A DNA stretch of 51,648 nucleotides. Source: a virus. Lineage: Duplodnaviria; Caudoviricetes. The first letter of the stretch is position 1. Each line of letters starts with the position of its first letter. Positions 19,504 to 51,648 of the stretch are shown here, piece by piece. The translations under genes and the position numbers were made by a program. Under the pieces are notes generated by a model. It was not told where the DNA came from. It saw only the letters and a list, made by a program, of their open reading frames with translations, and ran no database searches. The stretch spans positions 1 to 51,648 of the IMG/VR virus record IMGVR_UViG_3300030333_007728. One strand, 5' to 3'.

Positions 19504-20019
19504 TTATTCTCCGGGCTTGTTGCCGTCAATAACTTTGTCACGCTTGTTAGCGAATTCTTTTCTAATCTCAGCAATACGCTTCTTAACTTCATCACGATGC
19601 TTCTTCGTTAGCTCATGCATTTCTTTATGAGCTTCTTTCATTTTATCGCGTAAAGCGGCGCGCTCTTCATCTGTGGCGTCTTTGAATTTAGATTTATCAA
19701 AGTTGCCTTTCATTTTCTTAGCGGCCTCAGAGAAGTCTTTTCTTAGTTGCTTTATCTTGTCGTCATTACGGACTAATTTACCGAAAGCTCTTCCTTTTTC
19801 GCGAATTTTATGTCCTTCTTTTTTAGCGTCGCCTCTGCGTTTTTTACGCTTATCAAAAGCTGCTTTAAGCCGCTCTTTAATTTTATCCCGATCAATTTTT
19901 TTCTCAGGACGAGGCTTGTCGGGCTTCTCTTTGTCTTTTTTTGGTTTAGCCTCTGTGGTTGTTAACGCTGATGCAATAATAGCTACCAGCCCGTACTTAA
20001 TAATGTTTTTATAAAACAT
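19504..20019 (-). CDS. Secreted/periplasmic Lys/Arg/Glu-rich helical protein
   Basis: Start re-called at ATG 20019 because the ORF-track extension runs through a terminator. Signal peptide MFYKNIIKYGLVAIIASALTTTEA is followed by a highly charged helical body. Confidence 0.7.
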   Translation of the reverse strand: MFYKNIIKYGLVAIIASALTTTEAKPKKDKEKPDKPRPEKKIDRDKIKERLKAAFDKRKKRRGDAKKEGHKIREKGRAFGKLVRNDDKIKQLRKDFSEAAKKMKGNFDKSKFKDATDEERAALRDKMKEAHKEMHELTKKHRDEVKKRIAEIRKEFANKRDKVIDGNKPGE

Positions 20020-20024
20020 AGTAG

Positions 20025-20033
20025 TATTTACAC
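20025..20033 (-). promoter_or_regulatory. GTGTAAATA putative phage promoter element
   Basis: GTGTAAATA lies 5 nt upstream of ATG 20019 and directly downstream of the nrdB terminator. Confidence 0.6.
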
Positions 20034-20048
20034 TGCAGGAAGCGTGCC

Positions 20049-20079
20049 AAAAAAGAAACCCCCCAAAAAGGGGGGTTTC
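20049..20079 (-). terminator. Rho-independent terminator of the nrdA-nrdB unit
   Basis: 10-bp stem GAAACCCCCC/GGGGGGTTTC with a 5-nt loop and a T6 tail on the minus strand. Confidence 0.9.
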
Positions 20080-20141
20080 CGTCACTTGTCTACTAACTAT
20101 GCTCGCACTTGGGGGATTATTACCCAACTAACTGGGAAATA

Positions 20142-28118: not shown

Positions 28119-28310
28119 TTAATCTAGTTTTTCGTCCATGTATTTAACTACTTGTTTAGCCAAATACCCCTTTTCTTTTTCGTCCCCTTTGTCAACTAAA
28201 GATCTTCTCCATTCAGGAAGGTTTTTGTAATGAGCCCAGTAAATTGCTTCTATTTTCTCGGATTCTTTTAGCTTTATTAAGCGTTTTTTAGGTTTTTCTG
28301 TTTCCGTCAC
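28119..28310 (-). CDS. Small basic hypothetical protein
   Basis: 63 aa; GTG start 8 nt downstream of the -10 box of the leftward promoter. Confidence 0.6.
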   Translation of the reverse strand: MTETEKPKKRLIKLKESEKIEAIYWAHYKNLPEWRRSLVDKGDEKEKGYLAKQVVKYMDEKLD

Positions 28311-28318
28311 TGCAAAAA

Positions 28319-28347
28319 AACATATCTAACGCTTTTTAATCAGTCAA
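28319..28347 (-). promoter_or_regulatory. Leftward sigma70-like promoter with AAAAG spacer element
   Basis: TTGACT-gattaAAAAGcgttaga-TATGTT with a 17-nt spacer. Confidence 0.7.
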
Positions 28348-28361
28348 CGATTTTAAAGTTG

Positions 28362-28390
28362 TTGACACGCCAAAAAGTACTTGCTAAAAG
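28362..28390 (+). promoter_or_regulatory. Rightward sigma70-like promoter with AAAAG spacer element
   Basis: TTGACA-cgccaAAAAGtacttgc-TAAAAG, back-to-back with the leftward promoter. Predicted start ~28396-28397. Confidence 0.65.
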
Positions 28391-28391
28391 C

Positions 28392-28706
28392 GTTCTTGCT
28401 TTTCGCGGTGAAATAGCCTAGCGGGGATAGCCCGCTTAAACACGTTAGAGACAACAGGCCCGTAAAAAGACACCAATCAAGAAGACTAATAATCTTCACG
28501 TTATTTCGGGAAAAGGCGGCGTTTGAGATTGGAAAAGCTAAAAACTTAAGGCGACCCCTCTGGGGGAAGGAAGAAGTTAAAAGTCAAAAAAGAAGTCACA
28601 CCGCTTGGGAAAGCAAAAACATAGCTGAGATTGGTTGCGAGCTAGGCTGACACATGGCCAATGCGATGACTGAAGCAGGTAATTTCAGGGTATTTTATAG
28701 CGCATT
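28392..28706 (+). ncRNA. Candidate large structured non-coding RNA or structured leader (unassigned family)
   Basis: No ORF; starts right at a predicted TSS. Long-range helices 28396-28410/28599-28616 and 28415-28422/28641-28648 cross each other. Also 28660-28665/28701-28706 and several local hairpins. Confidence 0.55.
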
Positions 28707-28782
28707 CTTTTAATAATATTGACTGGCGTTAAGTTGACTGCTATTACTTAGGCTCCTCCTCGGAGGAAGGAAGAAGTTAAAA
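28544..28782 (+). repeat. Two copies of a ~37-39-nt hairpin plus GGAAGGAAGAAGTTAAAA element
   Basis: Identical 18-mer at 28565-28582 and 28765-28782, exactly 200 bp apart. Each is preceded by ACTTA(A)GGC and a hairpin (CCCCTCTGGGGG versus CCTCCTCGGAGG). Confidence 0.85.
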
Positions 28783-28833
28783 CTTCTTCATATACGCTCT
28801 TCGAGCGTTAACCTTAATAGAATATAGTCTAAA

Positions 28834-29451
28834 ATGCTAGAAGTTGATAATAAACTAGTTGAAAAAGTAAAGTTTAATAGATGTTCAGACTCTACTTTGA
28901 AATTAGCCCAAAGACATGTTGGTATATTTAATAAAGTCTATAAAAAGTATTTTAAGGCCTTAAATGAGGTTGGATACGCATATAAAAACTTTCAAGACGA
29001 TGTAAACTTAATAGTTTTTAAGGCTTGTATATCCTTCAAGGAAAACGGAGGTTCTAAGTTCTCTACATGGTTATGTAATCACACTAGATACCATTGCCTT
29101 AACGAGATAAACAGCAAAAACAAGAAGAATAAAATCAAATTAGATTTATCCAATAATTTTGAAGAAAATCAAGAGTCCGGCTTGAAGGAGCTTGATGCAT
29201 ACTGTCAAGAGAAGAGGATTAAGGACGATGCTGAATACATAATGAATATACTTTCCGGAATGAAGGATAAAAGAATATCTAAGATATTTGATATGAGATA
29301 TTTTTCAGAAACGAATAAAAACAAACTAGCTTGGTCAAGTATAGCTAGGGAGTTAGGAATAAGCACCCAAACAGCTATAAATCTTCATGAAAAAGGAGCT
29401 ACGATGGTAAGAAATAAAATAGAATGTAGCTCTAATTCTGATACAATATAA
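28834..29451 (+). CDS. Phage-encoded sigma-70-family RNA polymerase sigma factor
   Basis: Region 2-like FKACISF...GSKFSTWLCNHTRYHCLN and region 4 HTH IFDMRYF...WSSIARELGISTQTAINLHEKG; 205 aa. Confidence 0.8.
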   Translation: MLEVDNKLVEKVKFNRCSDSTLKLAQRHVGIFNKVYKKYFKALNEVGYAYKNFQDDVNLIVFKACISFKENGGSKFSTWLCNHTRYHCLNEINSKNKKNKIKLDLSNNFEENQESGLKELDAYCQEKRIKDDAEYIMNILSGMKDKRISKIFDMRYFSETNKNKLAWSSIARELGISTQTAINLHEKGATMVRNKIECSSNSDTI

Positions 29452-46983: not shown

Positions 46984-47736
46984 ATGATACCTCTTTTCAA
47001 GAGCCATTATTCTATTGGCAGAAGCATATTGAATCTTTCTTCAAACGAAGAATCTTCAGGCGCAGAAAACTCAATACCTCTGCTTTGTAAAAAGTCGGGA
47101 CTCAAGGACGTTTTTCTAGTAGATGATTCCATGAGCGGTTTTTTGCAAGCCTACTTAAACTGCCAAGAACTTAAGCTTAACCTGATATTTGGACTTAGGA
47201 TTACCTTATGTAGCGACATTACCAAAAAGAATGAAGAGTCTAGGTCTTCTAATAGCAAGATAGTAATCTTTTGTAAAACTAGCGAAGGCTACAGGAAGCT
47301 TGTCAAAATTTTTGGAGAGGGAGCTAAGGATGGCTTTTATTACGAGCCTAGATTAGACTTAAAGGTTCTAAAAAGACATTGGGACGATGAGCATTTAATG
47401 ATGTGCATCCCATTCTACGATTCTTTTTTGTTTAGTAATTTCTTGAATGGTGGCAATTTCGTGCCTGACTTTAGCTTCTGCCAAACTAAATTTTTTATTG
47501 AAGATAATGATTTACCGTTCGATGAGATACTTAGAGATAAAGTTGACTCATACTGCGGAAAAAGCCACAAAACAGAGTTGGTAAAAAGTATTTTTTACCC
47601 TAAAAGAGAAGATTTTATTAGTTACTTAACCTTTAAATGCATAAACAAGCGAACTACTTTAAATAAGCCTAACCTAGATCATATGTGTTCTGAAGAGTTT
47701 TGCCTTGAAAGCTGGGAGGAAGCCACAAATGGATGA
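46984..47736 (+). CDS. Stand-alone PHP domain of DNA polymerase III alpha
   Basis: PLFKSHYSIGRSIL, LVDDSMSGF, LIFGLRI, IFCK..EGYRKLVKI and DGFYYEPRLD match the DnaE N-terminal PHP domain. Most metal-binding His residues are absent. Confidence 0.8.
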   Translation: MIPLFKSHYSIGRSILNLSSNEESSGAENSIPLLCKKSGLKDVFLVDDSMSGFLQAYLNCQELKLNLIFGLRITLCSDITKKNEESRSSNSKIVIFCKTSEGYRKLVKIFGEGAKDGFYYEPRLDLKVLKRHWDDEHLMMCIPFYDSFLFSNFLNGGNFVPDFSFCQTKFFIEDNDLPFDEILRDKVDSYCGKSHKTELVKSIFYPKREDFISYLTFKCINKRTTLNKPNLDHMCSEEFCLESWEEATNG

Positions 47737-48373
47737 CCATCTTTTAAGGTACGATAAAGAAAAAGAGCTAGTTTTCATAGATTGTGAAACTATGAATCTA
47801 TGCTTAAATAGATGCAATAACTTACCATGGCAAATAGCTATGTTGAAAGTTAAAGGCGACAAAATTATTGACAGTAGAGATTTGTATATTAAATGGGATA
47901 CTGATTTAAAGATATCTAAAGAAGCGGCTGAGATAACTAGGTTTGATCCCTCTAAATTAGACAAGCTTGGTATAGAGCCTAAACAAGCTTTTGATGAAGT
48001 AAGTAATTGGCTTTCTAGCGCGGATCATGTCGTAGGACACAATCTTTTGGGATTTGACATTTATATTTTACGTATTTTGTACAAAGAGTTTGCGGGCTCT
48101 AATCTGTTGAAGCAGATCCCGAGGAAGATCATAGACACTCTTTCGATAGCTAAGGGTATCAAGTTAGGCTTACAATACAATAGAGATGATGACTTTTTAG
48201 CTTATCAATATAAAATGTACCATATCATTAAGAAGGGCCTCAAATGTAATTTAAAAGCCCTTGGCAATGAACATAAGATAGAACACGATTATGATAGATT
48301 ACATGATGCTTTAGTCGACCTAGAGCTGAACTTAAAAGTTTGGAATGTGTTTAAATGGCAAATAGACATATGA
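47729..48373 (+). CDS. DEDDh 3'-5' exonuclease (DnaQ/epsilon-like)
   Basis: Start re-called at ATG 47729. FIDCET, GHNLLGFDI, IIDTL and LHDALVDL motifs. Confidence 0.88.
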   Translation: MDDHLLRYDKEKELVFIDCETMNLCLNRCNNLPWQIAMLKVKGDKIIDSRDLYIKWDTDLKISKEAAEITRFDPSKLDKLGIEPKQAFDEVSNWLSSADHVVGHNLLGFDIYILRILYKEFAGSNLLKQIPRKIIDTLSIAKGIKLGLQYNRDDDFLAYQYKMYHIIKKGLKCNLKALGNEHKIEHDYDRLHDALVDLELNLKVWNVFKWQIDI

Positions 48374-49056
48374 ATCAAGTAATTACTTCATTTAATCAGA
48401 TAGATTATACCTTCCTAAAAGACTTTAGTAAGATTATAGTTTCTGGCCCCCAGAGATCTGGTACTAATTTAGTCTCTCAGCATATTTTCGAACAGTTTTT
48501 TGATTTTGCTGGCTGGCAGTTCGTTGATGAGCTTGAGTTTGATTTTTTCATTGAGTCTAACTTCGCTGATAAAGTCAAAGATCCTATGAAAATGGTGATA
48601 CAAGCCCCAACAATGTCTCACCTTCTACATACTTTAGATAGGCCTGATATTTTTGTGTTTTTTTGCGTTAGGCCAATAAAAGATATCCTCAGGTCAGAGG
48701 AGAAAGCGAGATGGGATGGCCAAAAATTTGAGAGGGCTAATTACAGAAGAGAAGACTTCGACTTAATGCCAATCGCTCAAGCTAAATATCACTATTGGTT
48801 TTTCGAGCAGAGGCTTAAAATGCAATGTAGCTTTGCTGAAGCTCATTTTTCGGCTTTTAGATCTAGTCAGGTCTGGTCAGATAAGGAAAAAACTGGTTTT
48901 CAGCCAGATACGAGCTGGAAGCCGGACTCAGCTAGAGATGACGGAGATAGGTGGGCCTATGTTCATGGCCCAAATGGGCCAGAGTCTATGAGGGTTGCTA
49001 AGTATTGGTTTGAAACGGAAGAGGAGATAGAGAAGTGGCGAATACAAAAGAAGTAA
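48370..49056 (+). CDS. Sulfotransferase-like P-loop protein
   Basis: IIVSGPQRSGTNL (5'-PSB-like loop) and CVRPIKDILRS (3'-PB-like R...S). Confidence 0.55.
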   Translation: MNQVITSFNQIDYTFLKDFSKIIVSGPQRSGTNLVSQHIFEQFFDFAGWQFVDELEFDFFIESNFADKVKDPMKMVIQAPTMSHLLHTLDRPDIFVFFCVRPIKDILRSEEKARWDGQKFERANYRREDFDLMPIAQAKYHYWFFEQRLKMQCSFAEAHFSAFRSSQVWSDKEKTGFQPDTSWKPDSARDDGDRWAYVHGPNGPESMRVAKYWFETEEEIEKWRIQKK

Positions 49057-51648
49057 AGAGATTTAAAAGCAATTTTAAGAAGCTAGATTTAGACATGCAT
49101 GGAGTCAGACTTCCTGACTTCGTGATTGAAGATAAATACCGTAAAGAACTCAAGGTAGGAAAAGACAAGGATAACTACTTTTTCCTGAGATGCCTCTCAT
49201 ACGCCGGATACGAGCAGAAAATAAAAGAGGGTAGGATAGACCCCAAAGACGCAGAGAAATACATTGAGAGGGCAAAATACGAGCTAGAAACGCTGTTAGA
49301 TTTAGGTTTTGTAGACTACATCCTACTTTGCTGGGACGTAATCAATTATTGTAAAGAAAATGATATACCAACAGGCTTAGGAAGAGGTTCTGCGGCTGGT
49401 AGTTTGATACTTTACTTAATCGGAGTTACGGGGATTGACCCAATAAAATACGAGCTGTTTTTCGAGAGGTTTATTTCTAAGATTCGAGCAAAGAAACAGG
49501 TCGTCGATGGGATTACGTACCTTGACGGCTCCTTGATGTGTGATATTGATTTAGATATATGCTACTATAAACGACCTCAAGTATTACAGTTTTTAGAAGA
49601 TAAGTTTAAAGGCAGAACAGCAAAAATACTTACTCTAAATACTCTTAGCGGCAAACTCTTAATGAAGGAGTGCGGTAAGGTAATTTACGATAAAAATGAG
49701 ACCGAAATGAACATGGTAAGCGGCTTGATACCTAAAGTGTTCGGAAAGGTCAGTGATATTGAAGATGCCTATGAAGAGGTGCCTGAGTTCAAAGAGTGGT
49801 GTGACGATAACCCTAAAGCTTATAAGATAGCTAAAACGCTCAGGGACTTAGTTAAAAACAAAGGAGTGCATGCGTCAGGAGTTCTATTATCATACGGCGC
49901 TTTAGAAGACTCTTGCCCTACAGAACTTTCTTCTGACAAGAATCCTGTTTCTTCTTTTGATATGGACTACGCGTCCTTGTCTAATGTAAAGCTTGATATT
50001 CTTGGGTTAAGAAGCACATCTGTTGTCGATGAGGCATGCAAGCTAGTTGGAATAAAAGTTACTGATATCGACGTTGAGAGTCCCGATATATACAGGAACC
50101 TACAAGACCTCAAATCGCCTCATGGGCTATTCCAAATTGAAGCCGATACTAACTTCAAGGTTTGCCAAAAAGTAAAGCCAAAGAATTTACAAGAGTTGAG
50201 CGCTGTTTTGGCCCTAGCTCGTCCGGGAGCATTAGCTTATGTAGATCAGTACGCTAGTTACACTAACACTGGAACTACAGATGTTATACACCAGTTCTTT
50301 GATGATATACTTTCAACTACTGGCGGCGTTTGTTTGTATCAAGAGCAGATGATGAAGATGGCTCATAAAGTTGGTTTTACGCTTGATGAAGCTGAGATAT
50401 TAAGAAGAATTGTAGGTAAGAAAAAAGTCAAAGAGGTCAAAGAATGGAAGAAGAAAATCGGTCAAAAAATTAAAGACAATAATTTAGATCCCGAGATAGG
50501 CAAAGTCCTCTGGAGCGTCTTAGAGGATTCAGCTAACTATTCTTTCAATAAATCTCATTCAATAGCTTATGCTGCTCTGTCTGCTGCCACGATCTATCTA
50601 AAGTTTAATCACCCCAAAGAATTCTTTTTGGCGTTATTGAAAATGACTCGATTTGAGCCAGACCCTATTAGCGAAATATCAAAGATTGAGAAAGAACTAA
50701 TAGATTTCAATATAAAACTCCTTCCCCCTCATATAACTAAATCAGAAATGGATTTTAGCATTGAGGGTGATGACATTAGGTTTGGCTTACTTTCTATAAA
50801 GGGGATATCAGATAAGTCAATAGAGAAGCTTTCTAACTTCAAAAGTAACTACTCTAATAAGTTCGAGATTTTCCAAGGAGCTAAAGAGTCCGGCTTGGGT
50901 ATAGGCATCTTATGCGCCTTGATTCAAGCAGGAGCTTTAGAGGGTTTTAAAGCCTCTAGAAGTAAAATCGTTTATGAAGCGCAGCTTTGGAACTTACTGA
51001 AGGATAGAGAAAAAATTTATTGTATGAAACTAGGAGAAAGCCTTGACTACGACTTGGTGGACACGGTTGTCAAGCTTTCTACTTTTCAGGACGAGAAGGG
51101 TAAGCCTGTGGTAAAAGAATCTAGAATGAAAACAATAAAAAAACATTCTGAGCCATATAAAGCTATTTACCAACAAAACAAAAAATCTGAGAGCTTTGCG
51201 AACTGGTGGTATGAGAAAAGTCTTTTAGGATATACTCACAATAGATCACTAATCGACATCTTTTCAGAAAAGCGCGCTAACCTTAGATCAATTAGACAAC
51301 TTTCCGAACTACCAGAAAGAACCAATGTAGTATTTGTTTGTTATGTAAATGATAAACCATACAAAGGCAAATCAAGAAAAGGCTCTGAATACCTTAGATT
51401 AGAAGTGGGCGATGAGACAGGTATTACAAGGGTAATGATATTCAATGACAAAATGCATCAATGCAAAGAACAAAATGATGGTTTCCCCCAAAAGGATAAT
51501 ATCATAGTTGTTAAAGGTACTACTGCCGATGATGTTGTTTTTGCCGATATGATTGCCGTTCAAAGCAATAAAATATTCACAAAATTGTCTGACCTCAAGG
51601 ATGGAGCTACGCCAGAAATAAAACCTGACAAAGAACCAATCAAGAAAG
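49035..51648 (+). CDS. dnaE: DNA polymerase III alpha catalytic subunit lacking the PHP domain (3' truncated)
   Basis: Not in the ORF track; hand-translated from GTG 49035. Motifs GFVDYIL, GRGSAAGSL..YLIGVT.IDP, LFFERF, CDIDLD, GVHASG, KLDILGL, YQEQ, YSFNKSHSIAY and IRFGL..IKGI, then an OB fold. Appears open to the window end. Confidence 0.93.
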   Translation, partial: MANTKEVKRFKSNFKKLDLDMHGVRLPDFVIEDKYRKELKVGKDKDNYFFLRCLSYAGYEQKIKEGRIDPKDAEKYIERAKYELETLLDLGFVDYILLCWDVINYCKENDIPTGLGRGSAAGSLILYLIGVTGIDPIKYELFFERFISKIRAKKQVVDGITYLDGSLMCDIDLDICYYKRPQVLQFLEDKFKGRTAKILTLNTLSGKLLMKECGKVIYDKNETEMNMVSGLIPKVFGKVSDIEDAYEEVPEFKEWCDDNPKAYKIAKTLRDLVKNKGVHASGVLLSYGALEDSCPTELSSDKNPVSSFDMDYASLSNVKLDILGLRSTSVVDEACKLVGIKVTDIDVESPDIYRNLQDLKSPHGLFQIEADTNFKVCQKVKPKNLQELSAVLALARPGALAYVDQYASYTNTGTTDVIHQFFDDILSTTGGVCLYQEQMMKMAHKVGFTLDEAEILRRIVGKKKVKEVKEWKKKIGQKIKDNNLDPEIGKVLWSVLEDSANYSFNKSHSIAYAALSAATIYLKFNHPKEFFLALLKMTRFEPDPISEISKIEKELIDFNIKLLPPHITKSEMDFSIEGDDIRFGLLSIKGISDKSIEKLSNFKSNYSNKFEIFQGAKESGLGIGILCALIQAGALEGFKASRSKIVYEAQLWNLLKDREKIYCMKLGESLDYDLVDTVVKLSTFQDEKGKPVVKESRMKTIKKHSEPYKAIYQQNKKSESFANWWYEKSLLGYTHNRSLIDIFSEKRANLRSIRQLSELPERTNVVFVCYVNDKPYKGKSRKGSEYLRLEVGDETGITRVMIFNDKMHQCKEQNDGFPQKDNIIVVKGTTADDVVFADMIAVQSNKIFTKLSDLKDGATPEIKPDKEPIKK

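Follow-up and report, generated by a model that had tools for sequence, protein, structure and literature searches.

The window, that is, the whole 51,648-nucleotide stretch of viral DNA analyzed here, is part of a large tailed-phage genome. Its genes include those for ribonucleotide reductase, RecA, DnaB, primase, polymerase III-type pieces, and PhoH, as well as a glycosyltransferase cluster. The genes diverge at a 523-nt gap (28311–28833), which is the largest between open reading frames (ORFs; the next is 81 nt) and, as a first-pass annotation of the sequence had pointed out, the sole long non-coding stretch. The ORF that follows it on the plus strand (28834–29451, 205 amino acids) has no Pfam match itself. 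Many of its 396 relatives carry sigma-70 region 2, its profile matches solved SigA, RpoD, and ECF chains, and Atlas agrees. On these grounds, the earlier identification of the gene as a phage sigma factor was confirmed; the product is a compact protein of the sigma-70 family. It is described here as the neighbor of the RNA gene located in the gap, and no partnership between the two is claimed. An imperfect inverted repeat (28274–28339, 27-nt arms, 74%) is found just 5′ of the RNA promoter and overlaps the start of ORF 28119–28310. Elsewhere in the window, the minus strand encodes a 207-amino acid Lys/Arg-rich protein (19504–20127) that has a hydrophobic stretch resembling a signal sequence and matches nothing in Pfam or PHROG. 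In the region 46984–51648, a PHP domain (46984–47736), an exonuclease (47705–48373), and a stop-free frame of 878 codons that runs from about 49.0 kb to the window end are separate ORFs; this arrangement suggests that a polymerase III alpha-like set has been split.

A locus search from the single sigma protein gave nothing, and relatives emerged via alignment. The 160 loci collected around sigma homologs came half from viral sequences (best 80 of 251 matches) and half from metagenomes (best 80 of 503). The RNA gene, hereafter class A, was present in 66 of these loci, near-copies of this phage included, always on the sigma strand and about 125, 725, 1100, or 2250 nt upstream of sigma. Three motif scans of viral contigs added loci found independently of sigma, with one false match among 45 viral pattern matches (L187). 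After removal of 7 truncated rows and clustering at 97%, 58 non-redundant class A sequences were obtained, with a mean identity of 60%, a minimum of 45%, and about 28 effective sequences. When bacterial and archaeal genomes were scanned with a loose pattern (20 of 64 parts), none of 120 loci matched the profile (best E 0.002), and GenBank phages gave no match to the sigma-locus protein or to the RNA.

The class A RNA gene of this phage extends over about 395 nt on the plus strand (28396–28790), with predicted ends; the family has a median length of 405 nt (range 364–429). A size of about 310 nt had been proposed originally, but covariation joins 28452–28455 to 28733–28736, and the RNA is about 400 nt long instead. 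A sigma-70-type promoter, TTGACA-17-TAAAAG, is predicted immediately upstream on the same strand (28362–28390). It is present as first described, and conservation among the homologs begins just after it. A strict promoter scanner omitted it because the −10 element lacks its last T. A looser TTG..TA pattern was found within 75 nt 5′ of helix P1b in 42 of the 58 homologs, mostly 16–23 nt from that helix, versus 50 of 217 control windows. In this phage and its closest relatives, two plus-strand hairpins (28770–28789 and 28794–28808) are a possible 3′ end. No reading frame is common to the 58 homologs, whose longest stop-free run has a median of 56 codons, and the small ORFs within the RNA differ between lineages. 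A marine metatranscriptome yielded a single contig (28737–28887, 151 nt, depth 3), for which DNA is not excluded as a source. The contigs of six metatranscriptome runs, five of which gave nothing, included none over the RNA body, a result that neither supports nor opposes expression.

The single-sequence fold was no better than that of shuffled sequences (z −1.08 for 28392–28833 and −0.73 for 28396–28790); the case for structure therefore rests on the homologs. Helices were identified from mutual information and RNAalifold and counted on an alignment of the 58 homologs (alignment A3). The 49 pairs in 11 helices were paired in 93.5% of cells, versus 78.3% in shuffled and at most 41% in slid alignments, and compensatory changes were observed in 40 of the 49. 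Since the helices were derived from the same alignment, a tree-based null that keeps the number of changes per column was also run. In 40 simulations, 6 of 57,970 column pairs exceeded every simulated value. They were 28499:28521, 28485:28494, 28483:28496, 28418:28515, 28454:28734, and the non-canonical 28457:28512. Three further canonical column pairs had E values below 1 under this null.

All the helices of the predicted fold lie on the plus strand. P1 (28396–28616) comprises P1b (28405–28410/28599–28604) and an extension, P1a (28396–28402/28610–28616). P1b is the GCGGTG/CACCGC helix already proposed, with 94% of cells paired and compensatory changes in 6 of 6 pairs, while P1a is more variable (31–49 of 49–54 paired per pair). 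P2 (28421–28435) is a variable hairpin missing from some homologs. P4 (28473–28477/28528–28532, 84% paired) encloses the hairpin P5 (28481–28497) and P6 (28498–28502/28518–28522, 97% paired), and three pairs in P5 and P6 are above all null values. The P5 hairpin had been drawn correctly (99% paired). Two partners had been considered for CCAATC, the 5′ strand of P4, of which 28527–28532 was retained (84% paired) and 28629–28634 is not kept. The loop of P6 forms two pseudoknots, with 28416–28419 and with 28459–28462. The first of these, PK1 (28416–28419/28514–28517), is 98% paired with compensatory changes in 4 of 4 pairs, crosses P4, P6, and PK2, and includes the pair 28418:28515, which is above all null values. 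The second, PK3 (28459–28462/28507–28510), is 100% paired, with 2 of 4 pairs compensatory, and is flanked by the covarying non-canonical pair 28457:28512, which is G·A in some homologs and A·G in others. A long-range pseudoknot, PK2 (28452–28455/28733–28736), crosses P1; it is 98% paired and its pair 28454:28734 is above all null values. P7 (28594–28598/28667–28671) is 94% paired with 4 of 5 pairs compensatory and crosses P1b and P8. The 3′ domain (28627–28686) contains P9 (28627–28631/28683–28686, 82% paired), P8 (28635–28638/28675–28678, 92%), and a hairpin at 28645–28659 (89%). At least four helices cross in this predicted fold.

All the complementary pairs listed in the first-pass annotation exist in the sequence where they had been placed. 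Pseudoknots had been foreseen as well and are present, although the crossing helices differ from those drawn at that time. The pairing AGCCTAGC/GCTAGGCT was found in 63.8% of cells versus 61.7% in shuffled alignments, with 2 of 8 pairs compensatory and 449 of 500 shuffles as high; AGCCT pairs with 28514–28517 instead of 28641–28648. Neither the AATGCG/CGCATT helix nor the hairpin at 28670–28688, as drawn, found support in the homolog alignment. Taken together, we consider it very probable that the structured RNA is real.

The class A RNA includes two modules on the plus strand. Module M1 (28533–28586) consists of a 5′ strand, X1, a small hairpin, and the repeat copy Y1 (28562–28582). Module M2 (28738–28786) has the same composition, with a 5′ strand, X2, a small hairpin, and the copy Y2 (28762–28782), 200 nt after Y1. 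This 21-nt direct repeat had been overlooked previously. Comparison of Y1 with the downstream region identified a longest common stretch of at least 10 nt in 53 of the 58 homologs (median 15). A match of the same length was found in only 11 of 2726 pairs across lineages and in none of 289 control windows. The repeated strand, of 13–18 nt, is therefore identical within a phage and different between lineages. There are about 20 different repeat words among the 58 homologs, single changes are present in both copies (e.g., L084 and L120), and the spacing between Y1 and Y2 has a median of 200 nt (range 180–243, n = 53). Exactly two exact copies of the word were found in the window and in each of five partial class A records searched; one record had an extra match with one mismatch, as did the control. 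Three divergent class A loci (L214, L235, and L239) have lost the twin repeat or retain it in degraded form, with a longest match of 6 nt, and these could serve as natural controls for the role of the modules.

The two 5′ strands also resemble each other, sharing a 3-mer in 19 of 27 representatives versus 6.9 expected. X strands paired with Y strands somewhat better than with permuted partners in a test that ignores relatedness, with p values of 0.0015 for X1Y1, 0.0065 for X1Y2, and 0.013 for X2Y1; the value for X2Y2 was not significant (0.059). Duplex energies showed no advantage of own- over cross-lineage X:Y pairs (−6.2 vs. −6.5 and −7.7 vs. −7.6). The module stems are short (3–6 bp) and their registers shift. 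While the identity of the repeats within a phage is firm, the module stems are modestly supported and an exchange of partners is what the sequences would permit. The identity of the repeats could stem from copying at the DNA level instead of RNA function. Two other explanations of the repeat were discarded. The halves of the RNA are not duplicates as wholes, there being no profile match or homology outside the modules, and with two exact copies only, the repeat is not a genome-wide promoter or operator.

The gene located 3′ of the class A RNA is not constant. It is a dNMP-kinase-like gene, F2, in 36 of the 58 homologs, sigma in 15, and another gene in 7. In the colinear phage family, the order is an unknown gene (F0), a slot, F2, sigma, DUF736, and glycosyltransferase. 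Many of the 93 loci without a class A RNA have F0 abutting F2, that is, sigma is kept and the slot is empty. Other loci without class A hold one of two other conserved elements of 300–400 nt, class B (20 loci, 16 non-redundant) or class C (24 loci, 12 non-redundant). Both classes have a promoter of the TTGAC type and show compensatory changes in their helices, neither has an Rfam match, and profile comparison detected no homology of A to B or C. Among 36 records, all of them fragments, class A was found in 4, B in 6, C in 3, two classes in none, and none of the three in 23; two records that are 87% complete (G031 and G034) have sigma and a tmRNA and lack A, B, and C. In a quick tree of the sigma proteins, class A occurs in several deep clades, while loci with B and loci with C are interspersed in a single clade (support 100%), where near-identical sigma proteins adjoin different RNAs, B or C. 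Class B occupies a second slot between dUTPase and F9 and is also found within a leftward operon. The functional coupling to sigma suggested originally is thus unsupported: the next gene varies, sigma is found without the RNA, and near-identical sigma proteins lie beside B or C. The link to sigma is probably incidental, and RNAs A, B, and C behave as exchangeable genes that are not part of sigma. The RNA is likely to stand alone, because related phages move it, lack it, or have another large RNA in its place.

Additional features of these loci were noted. Class B RNAs, of about 390 nt and with their own promoter, were found in the same slot in L044, L057, L066, L093, L096, L107, L116, L121, L134, L036, and L136, and between dUTPase and F9 in L390, L391, L392, and L395; by eye, they have an AGUCC-type strand beside a GCGG helix, as does class A. 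Class C RNAs (L011, L022, L033, L122, L153, and L373–L385) are about 300 nt long, with crossing helices and an AT-rich tail. All three classes have two copies of a pyrimidine-ARRG-AAAA(G)-type motif, one internal and one 3′-terminal. A looser pyrimidine-ARRG-AAAA-type pattern was about as common in reversed sequence, with no clear genome-wide enrichment, and co-variation of the twin motifs was weak (own vs. cross means of 8.3 vs. 6.7 nt in class B and 9.3 vs. 8.2 in class C). F0 (L137:976–1416) encodes a protein of about 145 amino acids directly upstream of the slot in most relatives, this phage's clade excepted; it has no Pfam match and a weak winged-helix lead (score 0.86). Phage tmRNAs were identified at L233:598–1014, L414:8732–9158, L403:14725–15112, and L407:9269–9656. 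That of L233 lies just upstream of a class A RNA, and a tRNA-Gly (L020:1444–1519) lies just downstream of another. ARAGORN also identified tRNA-Ser genes with the unusual anticodon ACT (L404:11378–11465 and L407:8171–8260), and a 33-nt unit is repeated three times in tandem in record G031 (L411:12791–12857).

We tentatively propose, with rather less than even confidence, that the class A RNA is a stand-alone, trans-acting scaffold of about 400 nt, similar in kind to GOLLD and ROOL, with twin modules that exchange pairing partners. Transcription would start at the host-type promoter (28362–28390), and an RNA made from such a promoter would appear early in infection. The RNA would then fold into a compact core in which the loop of P6 takes part in both PK1 and PK3, while the 3′ end is drawn to the 5′ domain by PK2. 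Since the two repeats are identical within a phage and X1 resembles X2, either X strand could pair with either repeat. The modules might therefore toggle between local stems (X1:Y1 and X2:Y2) and swapped stems (X2:Y1 and X1:Y2). Alternatively, neighboring molecules may trade strands and oligomerize. A broader version, which we regard as unlikely, is that the exchangeable slot is filled by any one of three unrelated large RNAs doing the same job, the class A strands being either successive ribozyme substrates, with a 200-nt piece excised or circularized, or the swap arms of a strand-swapping assembly.

Other explanations were weighed against the stand-alone scaffold. The RNA could act in cis as the leader of a long operon, either as an attenuator or as a processive antiterminator; switching of Y1 between X1 and X2 would then decide termination at the 3′ module. 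It is always upstream of, and in line with, a gene, and more than 22 kb of plus-strand genes follow it in the window. In several lineages Y2 is followed by U-rich tracts, the metatranscriptome contig bridges M2 and the start of sigma (if it does not derive from DNA), and where the scores of Y1 and Y2 differ, Y1 is the better partner of both X strands in 5 of 7 rows. However, the downstream gene varies, no terminator was called at the 3′ end of the RNA, a separate promoter-like site is visible by eye before the next gene in L091, L095, L148, L222, and L238, and relatives run the same operon without the RNA. We consider the leader unlikely, though it deserves to be kept in mind.

Self-processing is a doubtful alternative. 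In such a ribozyme, X1 would be an internal guide docking first Y1 and then Y2, and the 200-nt piece between them would be cut out or circularized with a seamless junction. This would explain the letter-for-letter match of the repeats at near-constant spacing, and the dense knotted core of the RNA does have invariant unpaired bases. The AGUC/GACU pseudoknot, in addition, resembles P7 of group I introns. The group I core, located inside a gene, has a P7 with a bulged A that forms the G-site and a strand order of R before S. In class A, the 5 bp of P7 are uninterrupted and no A is bulged out, the strand order is reversed, and the RNA is intergenic, so a group I intron core was rejected. No Rfam ribozyme matched either, and the segment separating Y1 from Y2 pairs with the 5′ domain through P1b and PK2. 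The metatranscriptome contigs, none of which spans the RNA body, contained no joint of the kind expected from excision.

It is improbable that the element functions as DNA, either as a replication origin with a primer RNA or as a promoter/stem-loop unit like the PeSL cassettes, with repeats kept alike by recombination. Its position at the divergence point of transcription in the window and the exchange of slot content between close relatives would fit, and PeSL cassettes are reported to shuffle modules in T4-type phages (PMC2839356). Nonetheless, the crossing helices and many G–U pairs point to RNA, and GC skew follows the gene strand, turning positive again to the left of 18 kb. The element is present once per record instead of being dispersed, near-complete relatives lack it, and class B is also found inside a leftward operon.

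About as improbable is a coupling to sigma, as put forward in the first-pass annotation; the RNA could be a decoy, timer, or guide for the sigma–RNA polymerase complex. All 66 loci retrieved via sigma (among the best 80 of 251 and best 80 of 503 matches) have sigma no more than 2.3 kb 3′ of the RNA, and sigma is in the short flank of 11 of 19 loci found via the RNA alone. An RNA-guided sigma factor also has a reported precedent (PMC12259090). The synteny, however, is that of a colinear phage family, in which sigma is adjacent to the RNA in 15 of 58 cases, and B and C interleave within one tight sigma clade. None of five class A records (32–64% complete) has Cas12f/TnpB, a reverse transcriptase (retron/DRT), or an IS110 DEDD recombinase, and none of these was found among the 47 ORFs of the window. 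There is no third exact match to the repeat in the window or the five partial records, and the fold is not a 6S-like rod.

Least probable of all, the modules would be a pair of sites bound by a dimeric protein of phage or host, or by a small RNA, the whole being a sponge or scaffold that co-evolves with its partner; the two pyrimidine-ARRG-AAAA-type motifs of all three classes, not clearly enriched genome-wide, are in its favor, but about 20 repeat words among 58 homologs would need a fast co-evolving partner, and in the clade of this phage the conserved gene F0 does not adjoin the RNA. A CsrA sponge and a hairpin ribozyme were also discarded, as neither GGA nor the AGAA/NGUC loop is conserved.

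To our knowledge, large RNAs of bacteria or phages with intricate folds belong to few recognized classes, several of which are ribozymes or assemble from RNA alone. Class A adds a family that has 58 non-redundant members and whose secondary structure can be tested, and classes B and C are two more candidate RNA families from the same phages. With its length of 400 nt, the RNA is amenable to in vitro synthesis for probing and cryo-EM without phage culture. If A, B, and C do replace one another functionally, they would exemplify the replacement of one large RNA by another that is not homologous to it.

The annotation had called the element a novel large pseudoknotted non-coding phage RNA with its own promoter. 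This description is supported by the lack of an Rfam match, the covariation among homologs, and the promoter pattern, with transcription itself predicted from the sequence. A search of Rfam 15, whose families include GOLLD, ROOL, OLE, raiA, 6S, RNase P, group I and II introns, and ribozymes, gave no match in the window at the gathering score, only two chance matches in 28200–28900 (E 4.4 and 5.3) when the cutoff was relaxed to E 10, and none on the RNA in 12 homolog loci. As anticipated, hallmarks of tRNA and tmRNA are absent (ARAGORN found none in the window), and a class A record (G008) carries a separate canonical tmRNA. 6S RNA is a long rod of about 180–200 nt with a central bubble, and the exclusion of this class holds, as class A is branched, knotted, and about 400 nt long. 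RNase P RNA has a P4 with a bulged U and the conserved regions I–V in order. An AAAGUCC-like word is present in class A, but its U pairs with an A in 50 of 58 homologs (columns 273:439) and Rfam gave no match, so RNase P RNA was correctly set aside as well.

Comparison with described systems places class A, on the basis of alignment, as an uncatalogued family of large and, as predicted, knotted phage RNAs. No description of the family was found in the literature searched, which covered few subscription papers, and within that same literature none was found of twin strands identical within a genome and changing between lineages. Fragments of it may be among the candidates of Fremin et al. (PMC10690425); four motifs and two sample ids had 0 matches in supplementary files 3, 5, and 6 of that paper. 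The raiA-motif RNA (RF03072) is likewise a compact knotted orphan RNA, and by eye the two have in common a short GCGG...AAGUCC motif. Class A is about twice as long and phage-borne, and no homology was detected: model R1 and the full-length profile scored nothing on three raiA loci, and RF03072 did not match L081.

The dCas12f–sigmaE system (PMC12259090) resembles this locus in having a non-coding RNA near an alternative sigma factor. It differs in that class A comes without a Cas12f-like gene in the five partial records, has a variable strand for which no target was found, and shows no fixed association with sigma. The PeSL cassettes described in T4-type phages (PMC2839356) are intergenic, equipped with a strong sigma-70-like promoter, and exchanged between related phages, as class A is. 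However, they are small multi-copy promoter/terminator units, while class A is a single-copy knotted RNA of 400 nt, with one match per record and a repeat present only twice; a PeSL cassette was therefore rejected.

The closest likeness is to GOLLD and ROOL, phage RNAs of unknown function that form RNA-only multimers and are often near tRNA islands, according to 10.1101/2024.12.08.627333 (PMC12286853). Class A differs in its size (about 400 nt, with many GOLLD RNAs above 800 nt), in being rarely beside tRNA genes (of 53 class A loci scanned, one has a tRNA and another a tmRNA), and in its twin co-evolving modules and lack of an Rfam match. Multimers of class A are a prediction. Like GOLLD and ROOL, class A is a large, multiply pseudoknotted, non-coding RNA of phages or prophages with no known protein partner, and it shows several features of a large ornate phage RNA, being long, conserved, phage-encoded, non-coding, and predicted to contain multiple pseudoknots.
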